DNA of 64,000 nt from positions 159,932-223,931 of the forward strand of contig CAVTPX010000005.1 in assembly GCA_963736735.1 (NCBI GenBank). The letters run 5' to 3'. Under the pieces are notes generated by a model. That model ran no database searches, was not told where the DNA came from, and was given only the letters and a program-made list of their open reading frames with translations. The position numbers and the translations under genes are program-made. Positions within the stretch are counted from its first letter, which is position 1; every line of letters starts with the position of its first letter. The stretch is from an uncultured Bacteroidales bacterium (GTDB taxonomy: Bacteria; Bacteroidota; Bacteroidia; Bacteroidales; VadinHA17). Positions 7,939 through 57,031 of this stretch are shown here, one piece after another.

Positions 7939-9820
7939 ATGCTCGCATTAGACTGGATTGTTCTCGGATTGTTCTTTTTGGGTTTGATTGGCATCATTGT
8001 CTGGGTGCTGATGCAAAAAGAAGCAACAACTACTGATTATTTTCTTGCTGGAAAGGATGCAGGATGGCTGTCAATCGGTTCCTCGATATTTGCCTCCAAC
8101 ATTGGTTCTGAGCATCTTGTGGGTCTTGCCGGCGCAGGTTTTATCAGCGGAATGGCAATGGCGCACTGGGAAATGCATGCCTGGTTGATTCTGGTTCTCG
8201 GATGGGTTCTTTGTACCTTTTTATGACAGGATCAAGGTGTTTACGATGCCTGAATTCCTCGAAAGAAGGTTTTCCTCCGGATCCCGCTCCGTACTTTCAG
8301 TAATTTCACTGGTATCTTATGTCCTTACGAAAGTTGCGGTAACGGTTTATGCGGGTGGTGTAGTCTTTAAGACCGTATTCGGAATTGATGAGATATGGGG
8401 ATATAGATTTCTTCTGGTTCAGTGCAGTGGGTCTTGTTGTAATCACAGGGTTATATACAATTTTTGGCGGAATGAAAGCCATATTGTACACCTCTGTTTT
8501 GCAGACACCGATACTGCTCATAGGTTCGATTGTTATTCTCGTAGTTGGCTTAATAAAAGTAGGAGGATGGGTTGAGGTTGAACGATTGGTAGGTTCCAAT
8601 ATTCATCTTGTCAGGCCTGCATCCGATCCTGAGTTCCCGTGGACTGGAGTATTGTTCGGATCAGCGATAATTGGCTTCTGGTACTGGTGCACCGATCAGT
8701 TTATTGTGCAACGTGTTTTGTCGGGCCGGAATCAGCAGCAAGCCCGAAGGGGAGCTATTCTGGCTGGTTATTTCAAACTGCTGCCGGTATTTATTTTCCT
8801 GATTCCCGGAATGGTTGCCTATGCATTGAATCAGAAAGGCTTGTTAATGGTTGAAAGCAGCGATTCAGCATTTGCCGCAATGGTTGCCCAGCTTCTTACC
8901 CGCCGGTGTGACTGGTGTTGTTGTCTGCGGGTTGCTGGCTGCTCTTATGAGCTCGCTGGCATCTCTGTTTAACTCCTCCTCTATGCTCTTCGTCGAAGAC
9001 TTCTATAAAAAGATGCGGCCTGAACAGGGATGAAAAACATTATCTGACGGTAGGCCGTATAGCTACAGCAGTAGTAGTTGTACTGGGTGTTGTCTGGATC
9101 CCGGTGATGCTTGGACTCGGGAAAGTCTTATATGAATACCTCCAGGGTGTCCAGGGATTGCTGGCACCGGCTATTGCATCAGTATTTCTGCTTGGAGTAT
9201 TCTGGAAGAAGATGAACGCCAAGGCTGCTCTTTGGGGAATGATTACAGGATTCAGCATAGGCATGTTCAGATTGATTTTAAACGTTGTATACGGAACCAA
9301 GGCAGCACTGATTACAGGTTGTGAGAAAGCTATCCAATCAATTAACAATGCAACCGATGCGTCTCTCAAGCAGGTACAGGAAGTGGTTCATTCCCTCAGC
9401 GATAAAATTACCACGGTGGCCGGTGCTGCAGGTACCCAGGCCAGAGAGTCAGTTGAGACTGCAAATGCATTGCTGTCAGCCGGTCTGACACCTGAATCAA
9501 AGAATCAGGCGGTACAGCTTATTTCACAGGTAAAAGAGAGCTATAACCAGATGTTCCTTGAGCAGTCAGGATTATTATTCCGGATAGCATCCATCAACTG
9601 GCTGCACTTCTGCGTAATTCTGTTTCTTATCTGTATTGCAACAATGGTTGGAATCAGCCTTACAACGGCTCCTCCGTCTGCATCAAATTTACAATATACC
9701 TACGCAGCCGCTACACTGGCTGATAAAAAGGCGACCAGGGCAAGCTGGAACAAATGGGATGTCATTCATACTGTCATAATATTAAGTATAGTAGTTGCTT
9801 TCTACATTTATTTCTGGTAG
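7939..9820 (+). pseudogene. Sodium:solute symporter (SSS/SGLT family), broken by four +1 frameshifts (or sequence errors)
   Basis: The collinear fragments are 7939..8226, 8237..~8400, 8385..~8895, 8851..9033 and ~9040..9820, in frames 1,2,3,1,2. Joined, they read as a typical SGLT: DYFLAGKDAGWLSIGSSIFASNIGSEHLVGLAGAG ... FTMPEFLERRFS ... WYWCTDQFIVQRVLSGRNQQQARRGAILAGYFKLLPVFIFLIPGMVAY ... PAGVTGVVVCGLLAALMSSLASLFNSSS ... LLAPAIASVFLLGVFWKKMN. Confidence 0.8.
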
Positions 9821-9857
9821 AAAAATCTGAATATTAATCATTAACTGTAATTAAAAG

Positions 9858-11348
9858 ATGAAAAACATAAATAGTGAACTTTGGTTTGTGACTGGCAGCC
9901 AGCATCTTTATGGTGAAGAAACACTTAAGCAGGTTGCGGCAGACTCAAAGGCTATTACTGCAGCTCTGGACAAAGCCGAAGCTATTCCCACAAAGGTTGT
10001 ATTCAAACCGGTACTTACAAACTCTGATGCAATTACTGCAATTTGCCTCGAGGCAAACAGCTCTCCGGAGTGTGCCGGTCTCATTGCATGGATGCATACC
10101 TTTTCTCCGGCAAAAATGTGGATTTCAGGCCTCAAAAAGCTCAACAAACCCTTGCTGCACTTCCATACCCAGTTTAACCGTGACATTCCATGGTCAGAAA
10201 TAGATATGGACTTCATGAACCTGAACCAGGCAGCACACGGCGACCGTGAGTTCGGTTACATATGTTCACGCCTTCGCATTGACCGAAAGGTGGTTGTCGG
10301 GCACTGGCAGGACAAGGAGGCACTGGCTTCAATAGGAGTGTGGGCACGTGCAGCAATGGCTGCACTTGACGCCCGCTCCCTTAAAGTAGCCCGCTTCGGT
10401 GATAATATGAGGGATGTGGCTGTAACTGAGGGAAATAAAGTCTCTTCTCAGATCAGGCTTGATTACCAGGTACAGGGTTATGGAGTTGGTGATCTTGCAG
10501 ATGCGGTATCAAAAGTGTCTGATAAACAGGTTGCACTTCTTGTAAAACAATATGGTGACGAATATAAAGCCTCAGCCAAAGTGCTCTCTGCAACCTCAGT
10601 AAAAGAGGCAGCCCGCATTGAGATCGGCCTTCGCACATTCCTGGATAATGGCGGATTCAAAGCCTTTACAACCACTTTTGAAGACCTGCACGGGATTGTT
10701 CAGCTACCCGGCCTTTCTGTTCAGCGCCTTATGGCTGACGGCTACGGCTTCGGCGCTGAGGGCGACTGGAAGACTGCAGCACTGCTTCGTTCAATGAAAG
10801 TTATGGCCAAAGGGCTTAAGGGAGGTACTTCATTCATGGAAGACTATACTTACCACCTTGATCCTAAGAAAATGGCTGTCCTCGGTGCTCATATGCTGGA
10901 AGTCTGCCCTTCTATTGCTGACGGAAAAACCTCTCTGGAGGTACATCCGCTTGGCATAGGAGGCAAAGATGATCCGGCAAGACTTGTCTTTAAGACGAAA
11001 CTAGGGAAGGCGCTGAATGCATCACTCATTGAGCTGGGTGACCGTTTCAGGCTGGTTGTTAATACCCTTGAAGTCATTGAATGCCCGCCTATGCCCAAAC
11101 TGCCTGTTGCAAGCGTACTTTGGAAACCACTGCCTGATATGAAGAGTGCCGCAACAGCATGGATCTATTCCGGCGGAGCCCACCATTCAGGATTCAGTCA
11201 GGCTCTTACTGCTGAGCACATGTCTGATTTTGCAATGATATCCGGAATTGAGTTTATTCTTATTGATGAGAATTGTGTTGTTGAAGATCTGAAGAAAGAA
11301 CTCAGGTGGAATGATCTCTATTATCACATCAATAAAGGTCTATGTTAA
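9858..11348 (+). CDS. araA: L-arabinose isomerase
   Basis: 496 aa. The N-terminus [20 protein letters not shown], the overall length and the context next to araD/araB are typical of AraA. Confidence 0.95.
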
Positions 11349-48262: not shown

Positions 48263-49189
48263 TTACAATAAAAAGAAGAAGCGCCCCGGCAATGTTGCCG
48301 GGGCGCTCTTTTTTAATGGTTTTACTAAATATTTCGAAATTTCCAGTTTCACAAACTCATTGCTCCTCTGCATGAGGTGCCTGTTTACAACGACTCCGCT
48401 TTTATCAACCAGCGTATAATGCGGGATCCCGGTAATACCGAACAGATTGCTGATAGACCTCCACTCTTCTTCTGAGACCCTGTAATGCTCACCCTTAATA
48501 CCCGGTATCATATTATCCCATGTATTCTTTGGTGAGCCCGGGTAGGTGATATAAACAAAAACCACATCTTTGTCAGCCATCTCCTCTTTCAGGGGTTTCA
48601 TTTGCTCTATCCCGGCGAGGCAGGGAGCGCACCAGGTTGCCCAGAAATCGACAAACACAACCTTTCCCCTGTATTTCTTCATTATGGCATCGAATAGTAA
48701 ACCGGCCTCAGTTTTAGGCACCTCATTGGTAACACGCATACCCTCAATGAATAGAATATTCTCTAAGAAGACTTTTTCAAGGCGATATTCCGTCTTTATG
48801 AATATAAAGCCCCGAAAGTCCTTTTTTGACGATTTAATGTGATCATATACTTTGATAGCAGCCTGCATAAATCTCTCAAAAGTATACGGTTTCAACAGGT
48901 AATCAGTCACATTAAACTCAAAACCTTTAACGGCATATTCATTGAATGCACTAATTATTATTACTGCAGGTCTCTGAATTAAAGATTCTAATAAATGAAT
49001 ACCTGAAAATTCGTCCATTTGAATATCAAGAAATATCAGATCAACCGGTTCTCTCTTCAGAAAGCTGATAGCATCCAGTCCATTATCAAACGTCTGTAAC
49101 AGTTTTAGGAAAGAAATTTTTTGCACAAATTCCTTGGCACGATCCAGTGCTAATGGCTCGTCTTCAATAATGATGCAGTTTATAATCAT
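48263..49189 (-). CDS. Chimeric ORF: receiver domain + truncated LytTR domain fused in frame to the C-terminal part of a TlpA-like thioredoxin
   Basis: Residues 1-~120 form a CheY-like receiver (IIEDEPLALDRAKEF...DLIFLDIQMDEFSG...KPYTFERF). Residues ~130-155 begin a LytTR domain (FIFIKTEYRLEKVFLENILFIEGMR). The sequence then switches to KYRGKVVFVDFWATWCAPC...FGITGIPHYTLVDKSGVV (thioredoxin fold, WCxxC). The junction at ~48735-48745 coincides with a GC-content step. Confidence 0.6.
   Translation of the reverse strand: MIINCIIIEDEPLALDRAKEFVQKISFLKLLQTFDNGLDAISFLKREPVDLIFLDIQMDEFSGIHLLESLIQRPAVIIISAFNEYAVKGFEFNVTDYLLKPYTFERFMQAAIKVYDHIKSSKKDFRGFIFIKTEYRLEKVFLENILFIEGMRVTNEVPKTEAGLLFDAIMKKYRGKVVFVDFWATWCAPCLAGIEQMKPLKEEMADKDVVFVYITYPGSPKNTWDNMIPGIKGEHYRVSEEEWRSISNLFGITGIPHYTLVDKSGVVVNRHLMQRSNEFVKLEISKYLVKPLKKSAPATLPGRFFFLL
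48281..48314. terminator. Bidirectional rho-independent terminator between galM and the TlpA-like fragment
   Basis: gcgccccggcaa / ttgccggggcgc form a perfect inverted repeat, followed by tctttttt on the + strand and preceded by an A/T tract. The minus-strand ORF 48263..49189 reads through it (tail ...KKSAPATLPGRFFFLL). Confidence 0.75.
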
Positions 49190-49827
49190 TCAGTTTTAAT
49201 CTTAAGATAGACTTCAAATTGGTTGTCAGTTCTTATAATATCTAACTCATGTTTGTCATTATATAATAAGTAAAGGCGTTGTTTTATTAAATCTATACCC
49301 AATCCACTTTTTTCTTGGTTAAAAGTTTTTGAATTATCGAAATAATTACGACAAGTGAAGGATATTTCATTCCCAGTTGTTTCGATGATAATGTTAATCG
49401 CATCTTCAATCTTTTTATTTGTAGAATGCTTAAATGCATTTTCAATAAACGGGATAAAAATTGCAGGTGCAATCATTAGCCTTTCATTTTCTAAGGAAAT
49501 TGTGAGGTTCACATATCTTTCATTTGCTGTTCTTATTTTTTGGAGTTCAATATATTTTGTAATGTATTCCAGTTCAGTAGTCAATGGTATAAGATTAGAA
49601 GATGCTTCATAGAGCATAAACCGCATTATTTCTGAAAGTTGTTTTAAATACTTTGACGCAGTTTTAGGCTCCTTCTCAATTAATACATCTATATTATTTA
49701 TTGTATTAAAAAGAAAATGTGGATTAATCTGGGCTTTTAGAAGTGCCAATAAAATATTCTGCCGGCTATTTGTCTGCAAGATGGCACAATGTGTCATTAA
49801 TTTATCAACCACGCCAAAGGCTGACAA
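49186..49827 (-). pseudogene. LytS/YehU-type sensor histidine kinase lacking its N-terminal membrane sensor region (5'-truncated remnant)
   Basis: LKAQINPHFLFNTINNI (the His_kinase H-box) and the HATPase region (FIENAFKHS...GLGIDLIKQRL) are present. Only one TM-like segment remains upstream before an in-frame stop, and only ~125 nt separate it from the next gene. The stop overlaps the response-regulator start (ATGA-type, 49186-49189). Confidence 0.65.
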
Positions 49828-52852: not shown

Positions 52853-54898
52853 TTATGTCCTGTTTTTATTCAGTTTTTGTTTTCTTACTATCTCGTCCAA
52901 AAGTTCAATAATATTCTCATTCTTTATAATTAACATACCGATTCTTTCTTTAGATATTCCTTCTTTGAGTTTAAAATCATAAATGGGTTTTTGATCAGAA
53001 AGATCTGATTCAAAACAGTTAAACATTATCGAGTCTTGTTTGTCAAGATTTTCTGCCACTTCAAGTATGTGAGTTGAAATGAAGAAGAAGTTATCCCGAA
53101 TTTTGGCCAGTGCGGAGATAATTGTTAAAGATGCATCAAAAGCATCTTTAACATTTGTCCCCCGGAATAACTCATCAAATATAATCACCAGATTTTTTCT
53201 GGAATTTATTTTAAAAGCGATATCCTTGACTCTTTTAACTTCAGAATAGAAATGACTGTATCCTAAATTAAGATTATCTGTCAGGTTGATTGTTGTGAAC
53301 AGTCCTTCAAATATTGATATTTTAAGTTCCTTCGCCGGAACAGGAAATCCCAGATGAGCAAGGTAGATTTGTAGTCCTATTGTTTTAAGGAAAGTCGATT
53401 TTCCTGACATATTCGGACCAGTAAGAAAGCAAAGGTTTGAGTCAGGGTTAAACATAAAACTATTTGGAATTGGCGCAGAAAGAAACGGATGAAAAGCGTC
53501 AATAACCTCGAACAAAGGTTGGGATCCAGTTCGGTAATCAGGTAAAGTGAATCCCTCAGTCTTCATTATTTTACTTAATGTCTGGAGAACATCAATTCTA
53601 TAGACAATGTTCAATAATTCTCTGAACTGGATTTTGTTGCAAACTCTGAAAATTTGATCCAGTTTATTGATCTGTAAAAAACTTAAATCTTGGGTTTGAT
53701 TCAATACTTTCTTTATTGATTTTGATGATATAAATTTCCTGATGCTCTCAAAATCATCATTCAGTCCGGGATTTGTGGGAAATGTTTTGAACCCGGCTAA
53801 AAACGATTTAAGTGAATTAAGTAATGGAATTATTTCCTTAATCCCTGTTGAAATAGTATAATAGTCCTGATCTGATTTAAGTTTACTTTTCACAAAATTA
53901 AGGATTGCATCAATGATGTTGTCTTTCATCGGGACCCTTTGATTTCTCAAATAATATTCTATTAAATCAAGCTGTTCGGATTTAAGTTCCAGAAACCGGT
54001 TGTTTTCAAAGAAGAAAGCTATCTCGTTTTTACGATTTTGCAGAAATCCGAAATCAGAAACCGGAGTATTAAAAATTTCATGTAGCAATTCTTGTCCGCC
54101 TACTGTGGATGTTCGCTTGTAAAAGGAATATATTGAATGGTCATTTCTTCTGTCAGGGAAGATATCCAGATCTCTGATTGTCTGCTTGTCAACATCAAAT
54201 GGAGCTATGTTGTCCACGGAAAATTCAGTAGTTTCTTTGGCGTCAGGCAAATATCCCCAATCAACCAGATCTTGTTTCTTCTCTACTTTCTTTAGCCCTC
54301 CATCGAATAGTACAAAGTATTTATTTGCAACATCAAGAACCCTTCTGTAATCGTGATCGGTCAGGATAATTCCCTTTTTTAATGACATTTCGAGAATCAT
54401 CTTTTTAATTAAATCAACCTGAAGAGGGGAAATACCGTTAAAGGGTTCATCAAGAAGAACAAACTGAGTATCCAGGTTTAACAATAGTTTGACTTCAAAA
54501 TATCTTGATTCTCCCCCGGATAAATCCTGAATCTTTGTATCTGCAAGTTTTGCAAGAATTTCATCATCAAGAATTCCATTCTGATTGTTTTTACCAAAAT
54601 AAATTTCGACTACCTTTTTTAGAGTTATATTTTTAGGTAAAAAATTATCCTGATTGAGATATGCAATCTTGTTTTTCGCCTTAAAGGGTTGATTAGTTCT
54701 TATATCATTGATCCTGATAAATTTATGGTCAGTATAAAGGGTTCCGAATATTATCTTCAGGAGAGTTGATTTACCTGAACCATTTCTCCCAAACAGCCCG
54801 ATAACATCTCCGGACTGACATTTAAGAAAGATGTCTGTCAGTACCTGTTCATAACCGAATTCTTTTCGGACACTATCTACCTCAAGAAGATTTGACAT
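52853..54898 (-). CDS. Fusion protein: N-terminal ABC-transporter-type ATPase domain + MutS-related region (core/clamp-like + MutS domain V ATPase), no mismatch-binding domain
   Basis: 681 aa. The ABC half has GRNGSGKST (Walker A), LSGGESRYFEVKLLL (signature), VLLDEPFNGISP (Walker B) and LTDHDY (H-loop). The MutS half has FLTGPNMSGKSTFLKTIG (Walker A), IIFDELFRGTNVKDA (Walker B) and FISTHILEV. The locus is ~30% GC in sampled lines. Confidence 0.75.
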   Translation of the reverse strand: MSNLLEVDSVRKEFGYEQVLTDIFLKCQSGDVIGLFGRNGSGKSTLLKIIFGTLYTDHKFIRINDIRTNQPFKAKNKIAYLNQDNFLPKNITLKKVVEIYFGKNNQNGILDDEILAKLADTKIQDLSGGESRYFEVKLLLNLDTQFVLLDEPFNGISPLQVDLIKKMILEMSLKKGIILTDHDYRRVLDVANKYFVLFDGGLKKVEKKQDLVDWGYLPDAKETTEFSVDNIAPFDVDKQTIRDLDIFPDRRNDHSIYSFYKRTSTVGGQELLHEIFNTPVSDFGFLQNRKNEIAFFFENNRFLELKSEQLDLIEYYLRNQRVPMKDNIIDAILNFVKSKLKSDQDYYTISTGIKEIIPLLNSLKSFLAGFKTFPTNPGLNDDFESIRKFISSKSIKKVLNQTQDLSFLQINKLDQIFRVCNKIQFRELLNIVYRIDVLQTLSKIMKTEGFTLPDYRTGSQPLFEVIDAFHPFLSAPIPNSFMFNPDSNLCFLTGPNMSGKSTFLKTIGLQIYLAHLGFPVPAKELKISIFEGLFTTINLTDNLNLGYSHFYSEVKRVKDIAFKINSRKNLVIIFDELFRGTNVKDAFDASLTIISALAKIRDNFFFISTHILEVAENLDKQDSIMFNCFESDLSDQKPIYDFKLKEGISKERIGMLIIKNENIIELLDEIVRKQKLNKNRT

Positions 54899-55242
54899 AA
54901 CACAGGAATGAATAAAATTGGGATAATAAAAATCAGGTGTAACAGGTATGCTGATAAGAGAAGTTTAATTTTACTAATCCCGAGATTGTAGTAGAAATAA
55001 TATTCATTTTTCCTGGTTAGTTCGAAATAGAAAACAGAAATCAGGAATCCGCCTGTCACAAGCCAGAATATGAAACTGTATGTCAACGAATTTATTATGT
55101 TATCTGATTTAAATAATCCATTAAACAGCACAAGGGAGGAGAGCGCCAGGACAATTGAGAATATGATGCTAATCTTTAGAATGGACCTGCTATAGGGCAG
55201 AAATATTCTGGTCATGAATTGATTCGGATTATTTATTAGCAT
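54877..55242 (-). CDS. Small hydrophobic membrane protein (3-4 predicted TM segments) overlapping the ABC::MutS gene start by 22 nt
   Basis: 121 aa with hydrophobic stretches ILKISIIFSIVLALSSLVLF, FIFWLVTGGFLISVFYF and LLLSAYLLHLIFIIPILFIPVL. No family was recognised. The AT-rich context raises the risk that this is a spurious ORF. Confidence 0.5.
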   Translation of the reverse strand: MLINNPNQFMTRIFLPYSRSILKISIIFSIVLALSSLVLFNGLFKSDNIINSLTYSFIFWLVTGGFLISVFYFELTRKNEYYFYYNLGISKIKLLLSAYLLHLIFIIPILFIPVLCQIFLR

Positions 55243-55681
55243 TACTCCAATCTGAAGAAATATTTTTTTGTTCTAATGAATACCCCTTCAGAATGTTTGT
55301 AGATAAAGGTATAAATAAAAAAATCAATCCAGTTTTTCGATTTGAAATCTAGATCTAAGCGGGATGCAAAATATGGTCATTTCCAGAATCGACCCGCCGA
55401 AATTCCGTTGGTAGTAAACAGGAAACCGAAAAGTATTAAACTGAAAACTTCAGGCTGACGGTCAGGAAGAATAGCGAAAAGGCAGTAGCCACAAACGAAA
55501 TTTTGAAAGTTTATGCTGAATCCATTAAGCAAATTAATACTATATCTGCTTATTCATGTCAACAAAGGAAATACGCGTGAAACATTCTTCAATAATTAGA
55601 TGGGGCATGGTCACAAAATCCCGAAAGGGTAAATGCAACGGCAGCAAACGCTTCGGACTAAAACAGATACCTAACCGGGAT

Positions 55682-57031
55682 TCAGAGTACCCGGATCTTA
55701 ATACTTCTGAATGCCACTTCATTACCGTGATCCTGAAGGAGAAGATGTCCTTTTTCAGCCTCCCCGAAACCCGGGTAGATGTTGTATTTGCTGATACCGA
55801 CAAGGGTGCGGAATGCTTCATCACCTCGAGTATATTCGAGGACTTTGAAGCCGTTCATCCAGTGTTCTACATGACCGTTGTTGGAGACAATCCTGGCCGA
55901 ATTCCAGAAGCCGATGCCATTAAAACGCTTGTTGGATGCAGGTATCAGATCGTAGAGTGAGGAGAGAGTCCTGTTGCCGTCACGACCCATTTTTGCATCG
56001 GGATGGCGCTGGTCATCAAGGATCTGATATTCAAGTCCTATTGCCGAACCTGTTGAGGCATAGTCTTCGGTTACGAAGTATTTTACCCCGCTGTTGGCGC
56101 CTTCGGTGATGAGGAATTCAAAACTCAGGTCAAAGTTGCTGTATTCGTCAACTGTAACAATGTCGCCGCCGCCTTTTGATTCTGCACCTCCGGAAGGCAG
56201 TACCTTCATGTAACCGTTTTCAATTACCCAGCCTGAGTCGGGAAAAACCTCTTTGTGCGCTCCCCGCCATCCGGCAGATGAAACTCCGTCAAAAAGCAAC
56301 TTCCATCCGTCACGTTTCTCGGATTCCGAGAGGGTGTTTGGAATGAAATTGGCCTGATAGATTTCAGGAGCACCGGCAATCATATATTTCTCAAGGTTTT
56401 CAGTCACAATCCTTATATTCTTCCACCTTACCTCTGTTCCTGCCAGCTCCTTTGCCACGGCATGCACCTGGAATCCGATGAATCCTGAGGCATCTGCATC
56501 ATCGAGCAGGTCAGCCACCGCAATCCCGTTGATCCATGTCCTGATTCGGCTACCAATGGCTTCGACATGGTATTTGTTCCATCCATATTTGTCGAATGAC
56601 TTTACTGCAGCCTGGTTGTTAGGTGTGACAGGGTAAAGCCACCCGCGTCTTGCTTCGTCATAAATGCCACCGCTCCAGCCCCTGTCAGTGGGGTCTATTT
56701 CAACCTGGTATCCGTGCACCCTTCCGTTATCTACACTCTCAATACTATGGCTCCTGATCTGTACCCCGGAGTTAAGAAGCGTGTCAACCTTAACCTCAAA
56801 TTCAAGAATAAAATCAGAATACTCTTTTTCAGTGCACATGAAACTGTTGGGTGTGTCAGCGGTGGAGATGCCCACCATTTCTCCATTTTCAACTTTGTAC
56901 TGTGCCTGCCCGTTGAGCTGGATAAAACTGGTAAAGTCCTTACCGTTAAACAGTTCCTGCCAGTCGTTTTGTTTGCAGCCGTTGAAGATCAGTGTGCATA
57001 GCAGGGTCAGGGTGATCAGAGTTTTCTTCAT
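55682..57031 (-). CDS. Tandem DUF1080 (3-keto-disaccharide hydrolase-like) lipoprotein
   Basis: 449 aa with a lipoprotein signal (LIFNGCKQ). It has two repeats of the DUF1080 pattern: W..LFNGKD...F..., NSG(V)Q(I/Y)... and GYQVEID / GLEYQILD. Confidence 0.85.
   Translation of the reverse strand: MKKTLITLTLLCTLIFNGCKQNDWQELFNGKDFTSFIQLNGQAQYKVENGEMVGISTADTPNSFMCTEKEYSDFILEFEVKVDTLLNSGVQIRSHSIESVDNGRVHGYQVEIDPTDRGWSGGIYDEARRGWLYPVTPNNQAAVKSFDKYGWNKYHVEAIGSRIRTWINGIAVADLLDDADASGFIGFQVHAVAKELAGTEVRWKNIRIVTENLEKYMIAGAPEIYQANFIPNTLSESEKRDGWKLLFDGVSSAGWRGAHKEVFPDSGWVIENGYMKVLPSGGAESKGGGDIVTVDEYSNFDLSFEFLITEGANSGVKYFVTEDYASTGSAIGLEYQILDDQRHPDAKMGRDGNRTLSSLYDLIPASNKRFNGIGFWNSARIVSNNGHVEHWMNGFKVLEYTRGDEAFRTLVGISKYNIYPGFGEAEKGHLLLQDHGNEVAFRSIKIRVL

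Follow-up and report, generated by a model that had tools for sequence, protein, structure and literature searches.

How should one understand a single polypeptide that carries both a transporter-type ATP-binding cassette (ABC) ATPase and a MutS-type ATPase, and that is encoded next to a small membrane protein? The question is raised by a two-gene cassette on the reverse strand of a 64,000-nucleotide (nt) stretch of DNA from an uncultured Bacteroidales bacterium of the VadinHA17 lineage (contig CAVTPX010000005.1, positions 159,932 to 223,931; hereafter the window). The fusion gene occupies 52853..54898 (-), stop codon included, and encodes 681 amino acids (aa); the small protein, of 112 aa with three transmembrane (TM) helices, is encoded directly upstream at 54877..55215 (-). 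The evidence set out below points, with confidence that we would call evenly balanced, to a membrane-anchored ABC complex equipped with a MutS-type ATP-switch subunit, serving neither mismatch repair nor, probably, defence.

The fusion protein contains two complete and distinct ABC-superfamily modules, and the family alignments confirm every motif quoted for them in the preliminary description of this locus, each being invariant or almost so throughout. Residues 1-215 (54254..54898; all coordinates of the fusion gene refer to the minus strand) form an LptB-like ABC nucleotide-binding domain (NBD), assigned by Pfam and by sequence matches to PDB chains, with ABC_tran (PF00005) at residues 21-154 (E = 1e-22; 81.6 bits against a cut-off of 25). 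Its Walker A (54764-54790; G37-T45), Q83, LSGGE signature (54509-54523; residues 126-130), Walker B LLDEP (54443-54457; D150/E151) and H-loop His182 (54353-54355) are invariant or at least 90% conserved. The inter-domain linker (residues 216-233; 54200..54253), delimited by model confidence, alignment and junction comparison, is poorly conserved (11-56% identity across the stretch). In an AlphaFold2 (AF2) model of the whole protein (mean predicted local distance difference test, pLDDT, 84.4), disorder is confined to residues 220-229 (pLDDT <50).

Beyond the linker lies an all-helical region resembling the core and lever of MutS (MutS domain III-like; residues 234-462; 53513..54199; Pfam, DSSP and Foldseek), followed by a MutS domain V ATPase (residues 463-681; 52856..53512; PDB profile matches and Pfam MutS_V at residues 491-661, E = 4.5e-31). 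The Pfam match to MutS_III is weak and sub-threshold, and alignment with Taq MutS matches the N-terminal end of the MutS part, with its QTxxDLExF motif, to the beginning of domain III. Among 72 aligned sequences the residues of Walker A GPNMSGKST (53393-53419; G494-T502), Walker B FDELFRGTN (53153-53179; D575/E576) and STH (53069-53077; S608-T609-H610) are invariant, as is the trans-acting "S-x-F-x-x-E" loop (S548-E553), which is consistent, given what is established about MutS structures, with a domain V dimer holding composite ATP sites. A PDB profile search matched the MutS half to domain V of MutS/MSH proteins and more weakly to MutS2, and the top Foldseek matches were again MutS/MSH. Mismatch-recognition and connector domains (I and II), already reported as missing, were not detected by Pfam or in the AF2 model, and nor was the clamp (domain IV): DSSP assigned helices alone and zero beta strands to residues 262-462, with no clamp beta structure.

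That the two modules form one genuine polypeptide, as first described, is borne out by its recurrence. Among the best 120 matches of a database search, we found the identical protein, 10 further 90%-identity clusters at ~80% identity (from JGI, ENA, Logan and NCBI assemblies) and 29 clusters of 674-700-aa fusions at 39-45% identity, so that the fusion architecture was present in 40 of the best 120 clusters, in independent assemblies. One 679-aa fusion protein is encoded on contigs of at least four samples (L001-L004). The relatives of the window protein came from Bacteroidales and 'Ignavibacteria' metagenome-assembled genomes (MAGs), and cultured or named carriers of a fusion included Botryobacter ruber, Rufibacter glacialis, Saccharicrinis and Reichenbachiella. 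The ratio of nonsynonymous to synonymous substitution (dN/dS) against the L001 relative was 0.14 for the small open reading frame (ORF), 0.12 for the ABC half and 0.14 for the MutS half; all three parts are therefore under purifying selection. Together with the independent assemblies, this rules out the joining of two genes by a sequencing error. The same search returned numerous standalone proteins of ~445 aa (MutS_III + MutS_V), here called MutS3-like, which match the C-terminal 65% of the query at 59-73% identity. All these proteins carry generic database names ('ATP-binding cassette domain-containing protein', 'MutS-related protein', 'ABC-type multidrug transport system ATPase subunit'). 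In the complete chromosome of Puia sp. P3 (L017, 5938-8099) the fusion gene is broken into overlapping ORFs of 503 and 250 aa, which points to a sequencing error in the MutS half or to a pseudogene created by a frameshift. No paralog of the cassette occurs elsewhere in the 64-kb window.

The partner of the fusion was initially read as a 121-aa protein with three or four TM segments, whose ORF (54877-55242, minus strand) overlaps the fusion gene by 22 nt. The ORF is real and the overlap is kept in L001, a relative at 80% identity; the length and the number of helices needed revision. Because the ATG at 55242 reads ATA in L001, whose homologous ORF has 112 aa, and the ATG at 55215 is conserved, translation most likely starts at the second ATG and yields 112 aa. 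The AF2 model of the small protein (pLDDT 84.6) has three long helices (residues 5-30, 37-67, the latter kinked, and 82-111), and a short helix (69-77) bears the family motif NEYYFYYN (54985-55008, minus strand). An exhaustive profile search gathered 223 clusters at 50% identity, almost all of 60-130 aa and all named "hypothetical protein"; no family in Pfam, NCBIfam or PADLOC covers them. Common to them are three hydrophobic segments, the second and third of which flank a strongly conserved (N/Q)-E-Y-Y-F-Y-Y-N-x-G-x-S-K stretch, in which E71-Y72-Y73-F74-Y75-x-N77 is invariant and K/R residues stand on either side. Since the N-terminus and the TM2-TM3 loop are rich in K/R, the positive-inside rule would place this motif on the cytoplasmic side. 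The membrane association proposed at the outset is also supported. Candidate natural TM-NBD fusions (ABC ORFs of 308-321 aa at L044, L050, L074 and L075) proved to be out-of-frame extensions that were not hydrophobic and did not match the small-protein profile.

The pairing of the two proteins extends across the Bacteroidota. When GTDB species, each represented by one genome, were scanned with the N-terminal half, at least 589 relatives could be confirmed; the best 80 loci were kept and subjected to ORF and phmmer analysis, and neighbouring genes were clustered over 72 loci. In the kept loci, relatives of the ABC half belonged almost entirely to Bacteroidota (Chryseobacterium, Flavobacterium, Pedobacter, Mucilaginibacter, Chitinophaga, Pontibacter, Larkinella, Bacteroidales and others), and the ATPase was usually a standalone protein of ~220 aa, with fusions limited to L016, L018 and the frameshifted L017. 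In at least 64/72 loci the ATPase gene was immediately preceded or overlapped by a small ORF of the same family (median 100 aa), and the stop/start overlap of mostly 4-8 nt suggests that the two genes are translationally coupled. Neighbour clustering over the 72 loci revealed no third neighbour conserved across the phylum, and the pairing is also found in the cultured Botryobacter ruber. The basic unit is the pair of small 3-TM protein and ABC ATPase, of which the fusion is a minority state; the preliminary description rightly paired the fusion with a conserved small membrane protein and missed that the unfused form is far commoner.

Three further observations concern the distribution of the pair. 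At L070 (PBTY01000013.1), a Bacteroidota-type pair lies in a MAG labelled Rickettsiales, probably through an error of binning or labelling and otherwise by a rare transfer outside the phylum. The most distant matches of the genome scan (L080-L088; Synergistaceae, Fretibacterium and Desulfurellales; 30-33% identity) are ABC ATPases of ~240-260 aa from outside the Bacteroidota; no small-protein partner was detectable at these loci, and their ATPases served as outgroups only. In six Chryseobacterium loci (L037, L043, L045, L046, L049 and L053), a MutS2 gene and a YcxB-like gene are found 1.6-3 kb upstream of the pair; the MutS2 proteins (e.g., L037 2157-4397) have 715-746 aa with MutS_V and MSSS domains, and this synteny is limited to the single genus.

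How did the two families come to be joined? Both halves of the window protein are nearer to unfused than to fused relatives. Its ABC half is 72-74% identical to the standalone ~221-aa ATPases of L009-L011, as against 39-48% to the other (clade B) fusions; its MutS helical part is 51-61% identical to standalone MutS3-like proteins, which have no ABC half, and 27-31% to clade B fusions, and for domain V the corresponding ranges are 73-82% and 58-66%. In neighbour-joining (NJ) trees, the window fusion clade groups with the unfused L009-L011 and L089 for the ABC half and with the standalone P0013, P0023 and P0039 for the MutS half, to the exclusion of all other fusions in 100/100 and 96/100 bootstrap replicates, respectively. 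Because the trees put the window clade among unfused relatives, the two families underwent either two or more independent fusions or a single fusion followed by many splits. The junction is informative as well. Standalone ATPases end in "..DLIDWGYVPxxx", and standalone MutS3-like proteins begin with "M(T/I)FDIDKQT", aligning so that they start exactly at F-D-x-D-K-Q-T, residue 234 of the window protein; the window junction reads "..DLVDWGYLPDAKE-TTEFSVDNIAP-FDVDKQT", an ATPase C-terminus (..DLVDWGYLP) joined to a MutS3-like N-terminus (FDVDKQT). The fusion is an end-to-end join of two complete proteins through a disordered linker of about 14 residues.

The same partners are also linked without being fused. 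At L098 the small protein, the ABC ATPase and the MutS3-like protein are encoded by three overlapping genes; at L089 and L064 the pair and a MutS3-like gene lie 1-2 kb apart on one strand, and at L105 the pair is divergent from a MutS3-like gene 2 kb away. L089 stands out in that its ATPase and its MutS3-like protein (P0039) both rank with the nearest unfused relatives of the two window halves. Between the MutS3-like gene and the pair, this locus also carries an HTH_3 gene and an MNT/HepT (NTP_transf_2 / HepT-like) toxin-antitoxin pair (L089 3200-4665). The closest standalone MutS3-like protein, P0013 (L005-L008, e.g., L005 5259-8965; 70% identical to the window MutS half), is preceded by a DUF6364/PIN toxin-antitoxin pair and followed directly by umuD-like (Peptidase_S24), umuC-like (IMS) and SRAP genes, possibly a DNA-damage context.

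A second association with ABC proteins emerged when metagenomes were scanned with the MutS3-like part. In 14 of the 27 loci that had sufficient flanks to be judged, among the matches listed, tandem MutS3-like genes follow a different ABC system on the same strand, at a distance of at most ~165 nt (L101-L103, L107-L115, L119 and L120; e.g., L109 6424-12666). Its ATPase of ~309 aa combines ABC_tran with a DrrA C-terminal domain (DrrA/GldA-type), and its membrane part is a 764-846-aa ABC-2 permease/ABC_transp_aux (GldF/GldG-like) protein. The stop and start codons of the tandem MutS3-like a and b genes overlap, and at L119 the two form one ORF of 910 aa (8582-11314); SusC/SusD-like genes often lie upstream of the operon and an M16 peptidase downstream. 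The operon is old, because the identity of MutS3a among these loci falls to 36% (range 36-75%, median 47%). In 3 further loci of the 27, the small/LptB-like pair is found within 4 kb. Although the sample is not random, this neighbourhood pattern argues that the Bacteroidota MutS3-like branch is functionally tied to membrane ABC systems.

How might such a cassette work? We propose that it encodes a self-contained, membrane-anchored ABC-type machine with one cytoplasmic partner covalently attached. The small protein would dimerise in the membrane, and its short cytoplasmic EYYFYxN helix would dock on the ATPase much as the coupling helix of an ABC transporter does. Two ABC ATPase domains would close around two ATP molecules, giving a (3-TM)2(NBD)2 complex, and two MutS-type domains, hanging below on flexible linkers, would dimerise through domain V around two more. 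The MutS-type module would then act as a nucleotide-gated switch, as in MutS proteins, that either gates the ABC cycle or is driven by it, and the physiological role would most likely be envelope- or transport-related. A wider proposal, which we hold tentatively and at somewhat less than even confidence, is that a whole branch of the MutS family, the Bacteroidota proteins built from MutSd (domain III) and MutSac (domain V) alone, may serve not in DNA repair but as cytoplasmic ATP-switch subunits of two unrelated membrane ABC systems, one of them an undescribed minimal system with a new membrane-subunit fold.

Several points weigh against a MutS-type switch on a membrane ABC complex. Most loci that carry the pair lack a MutS3-like gene within 6 kb, and 10 of the 27 judgeable MutS3-like loci have no ABC link, so that the association is frequent and not obligatory; some standalone MutS3-like genes adjoin umuD/umuC/SRAP or toxin-antitoxin genes, hinting at functions in DNA transactions or stress. 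A 3-TM subunit is unusually small for an ABC membrane domain and may be only an anchor, and the small protein matches no solved fold (best PDB match E = 4). The locus samples, including the 27 metagenomic loci, are best tblastn matches and not random samples; the trees are NJ trees only, and bootstrapping them raised a numerical warning in the case of the most distant pairs.

The hint at DNA leads to the alternative that survives best, a membrane-tethered DNA-transaction factor whose MutS half would act on DNA (damage or recombination intermediates, incoming DNA, or chromosome-membrane attachment have to be considered) while the ABC and small-protein part anchors or powers it at the membrane. 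The protein is a MutS-family member whose composite ATPase is intact and whose N-terminal motif aligns with domain III of Taq MutS, its close relative P0013 directly precedes umuD-umuC-SRAP in four contigs, and the study that named MutS3 and MutS4 assumed a role in DNA metabolism (Lin et al. 2007; PMC2190696). However, the mismatch-binding domain I, the connector II and the clamp IV are all absent, with a purely helical stretch at residues 262-462, the umuDC neighbourhood comes from one close lineage, and the commonest conserved neighbours of the sampled MutS3-like genes are ABC transport genes rather than DNA repair genes. We therefore consider a DNA-transaction factor unlikely, and prefer the membrane ABC complex.

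The genomic setting bears on a further alternative, already raised in the preliminary description, of a defence or conflict module: anti-phage or anti-plasmid immunity in which an ABC-superfamily ATPase senses infection and a small membrane effector brings about the death or arrest of the infected cell. Such effectors are frequent in abortive infection. The cassette is compact, its genomic contexts vary between orders, and the HepT/MNT toxin-antitoxin and HTH genes of L089 and the PIN toxin genes near P0013 could be read in the same way. The low-GC block noted at first is real (33.8% GC in the cassette vs 46.7% in the whole window), and a horizontally acquired cassette would suit a defence system too. 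Yet the GC content of the module stays within a few percent of that of its flanks in 16 other loci. Set against a module that tracks host GC there and so appears native, the low GC of the window copy points to its horizontal acquisition from a low-GC Bacteroidota lineage. The window copy does not lie in a defence island: its neighbours are carbohydrate-metabolism genes (DUF5695, 3-keto-disaccharide hydrolase, GFO/IDH/MocA oxidoreductase, GH3, GH31 and aldose epimerase), the neighbours of the pair are conserved within Chryseobacterium and within Pedobacter, indicating stable vertical inheritance, and the fusion of the cultured Botryobacter sits in a housekeeping-like context. Against PADLOC-DB v2 the small protein matched nothing, and the fusion protein gave partial, generic ABC/P-loop matches only (mad3 at residues 111-206; AriA/PtuA in the Walker A region). 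Carriage on mobile elements was set aside, as no phage copy of the fusion was found and plasmids, all of them large replicons, yielded partial single-domain matches and not the full fusion. A role in defence is thus quite improbable.

A translation or ribosome-associated factor, perhaps acting on membrane-bound ribosomes by analogy with MutS2, which splits collided ribosomes, and with ABC-F/ABCE1, appears less plausible than any of the above. According to one report (PMC10897456), the MutS-type ATPase of MutS2 works on ribosomes and not on DNA. The ABC half has secondary matches to ABC-F, EttA and ABCE1, and a MutS2 gene accompanies the pair in the six Chryseobacterium loci. However, the former matches are weaker than those to LptB-type transporter NBDs, the latter is a single-genus observation, and the fusion has a single ABC NBD per chain, no KOW, Smr or MSSS domain and a MutS2 score far short of the cut-off (93 vs 400). 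We regard such a factor as highly unlikely. That the fusion is a neutral accident or an artefact of assembly or annotation that joined unrelated neighbours is scarcely credible and already largely refuted: most family members are unfused and the fusion of Puia sp. P3 is broken in a complete genome, but the architecture recurs in two lineages and throughout the independent assemblies, with purifying selection on both halves, both catalytic sites intact and an unfused operonic version at L098.

What, then, is the extent of the cassette? Nucleotide homology with L001 (blastn) spans window positions 55351-52874 only, and because it stops at 55351 the cassette consists of the two genes and ~110-135 nt upstream. 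The conserved upstream part (55216..55351, minus strand; promoter/5' untranslated region), defined by this homology and by alignment, contains a conserved AT-rich block, TTTTATTnATACnTTTAT, at ~55296-55313. The block matches 7/8 positions of TAnnTTTG, the Bacteroidota -7 element; an exact TAnnTTTG was not found upstream of the small ORF, and the assignment as a promoter is tentative. From 55352 to 55681, a non-conserved spacer outside the cassette, with no L001 homology, leads to the next gene, the 3-keto-disaccharide hydrolase. The ~440-nt non-coding leader initially described therefore does not hold up as a conserved element; as a candidate regulatory RNA it was dropped, since it had no Rfam match and no terminator, its promoter count was at background level and conservation was limited to the proximal ~110-135 nt. 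Within the hydrolase gene, a single-copy, sub-threshold Rfam match to CRISPR-DR15 (55752-55788, plus strand; 23.8 bits against a gathering score of 36, E = 0.14) is most likely due to chance. A second low-GC islet (31-33% GC) lies at 48263-49827 (-) and comprises two overlapping genes, for a 213-aa protein with a His_kinase domain and for a 308-aa fusion of a response-regulator receiver to a thioredoxin/redoxin-like domain, an unusual output domain for a response regulator.

These results matter beyond a single locus. Since 2007, when they received their names, MutS3/MutS4-type paralogs have been left without a function, and their usual annotation is "DNA mismatch repair protein"; two independent fusions, unfused operons and a deeply conserved operon with a second ABC system lead to the testable hypothesis that they work at the membrane with ABC machines. 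The pair of small protein and ATPase is itself widespread in an ecologically and medically important phylum, without any family assignment. Several carriers are cultured, including genera with genetic tools (Flavobacterium, Chryseobacterium and Pedobacter), and Botryobacter and Rufibacter carry the fusion.

How does the cassette compare with known systems? Since the NCBIfam scores for LptB, MutS and MutS2 fall far below their cut-offs, no named protein is orthologous to either half. LptB is the best PDB sequence match of the ABC half (E = 1.5e-24; TIGR04406, E = 3.8e-34) and shares its motif set, including LLDEPFxGxxP and TDH, and the LivF/UrtE group is also near. The scores, however, remain below the equivalog cut-offs (118.1 vs 240 bits for TIGR04406; 83.3 vs 381 for NF008144), the window domain is ~25 residues shorter than LptB, no LptF/LptG-like (6-TM) neighbour occurs in the 72 loci, and the sole conserved partner is the ~100-aa 3-TM protein with no known fold. 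ABC-F and ABCE1 have two tandem ABC NBDs, whereas the fusion has one ABC_tran domain and one MutS-type ATPase, with a conserved membrane partner gene.

MalK, MetN and ModC are ABC importer ATPases with dimerising C-terminal regulatory domains. They offer a likeness in layout, an NBD followed by a C-terminal module that can form a dimer below the paired NBDs and might control their closing, and the proposed MutS-type dimer would resemble these regulatory domains. The appended module here differs from theirs in being a complete ABC-superfamily ATPase of ~445 aa, attached through a disordered linker and predicted to hold two composite ATP sites of its own. GldA/GldF/GldG-type ABC-2 systems represent the second membrane ABC system, directly upstream of the tandem MutS3-like genes in 14 loci. 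The window has no such system, whose ATPase is of an unrelated subtype (DrrA-like C-terminal domain) and whose membrane components, an ABC-2 permease and a GldG-like protein, are likewise unrelated to those of the cassette; the likeness to the gliding-motility Gld proteins is one of domain content.

On the MutS side, of the domains I to V of MutS1 the window MutS half shows only III (weakly) and V (NF003810, 135.5 vs a cut-off of 480). MutS2 is likewise a MutS paralog without domains I and II whose domain V ATPase acts outside mismatch repair (PMC10897456), but the fusion lacks its clamp, KOW, Smr and MSSS domains (TIGR01069, 93.2 vs 400), and PDB chains of MutS2 match the window MutS half more weakly than those of MutS1/MSH. 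KamC, a MutS-like 'reactivase', was set aside as a functional precedent, resting as it does on an NCBIfam name and one gene-context figure, which is too weak. The literature that we searched held nothing that links MutS paralogs to ABC, Gld or membrane systems, and nothing on the ABC-MutS fusion, the small partner or the ABC-operon context, in agreement with the first reading of the locus, which knew of no described function. Counterparts in domain content are MutS3 and MutS4, named by Lin, Nei and Ma in 2007 without a function (PMC2190696), who listed a flavobacterial genome pattern as MutS3-positive and reported no ABC fusions or ABC-operon contexts. The C-terminal two-thirds of the fusion have, as in these subfamilies, the MutSd and MutSac regions only, which places the window protein within the joint MutS3/MutS4 group by domain content; the standalone ~445-aa relatives share the same content and, like MutS3 and MutS4, include tandem A/B pairs in which the stop codon of one gene overlaps the start codon of the next. 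What is known, then, is the proteins themselves, held in public databases under generic or misleading names; what appears to be new is the ABC-MutS fusion, its small partner and the links of its MutS branch to ABC systems.

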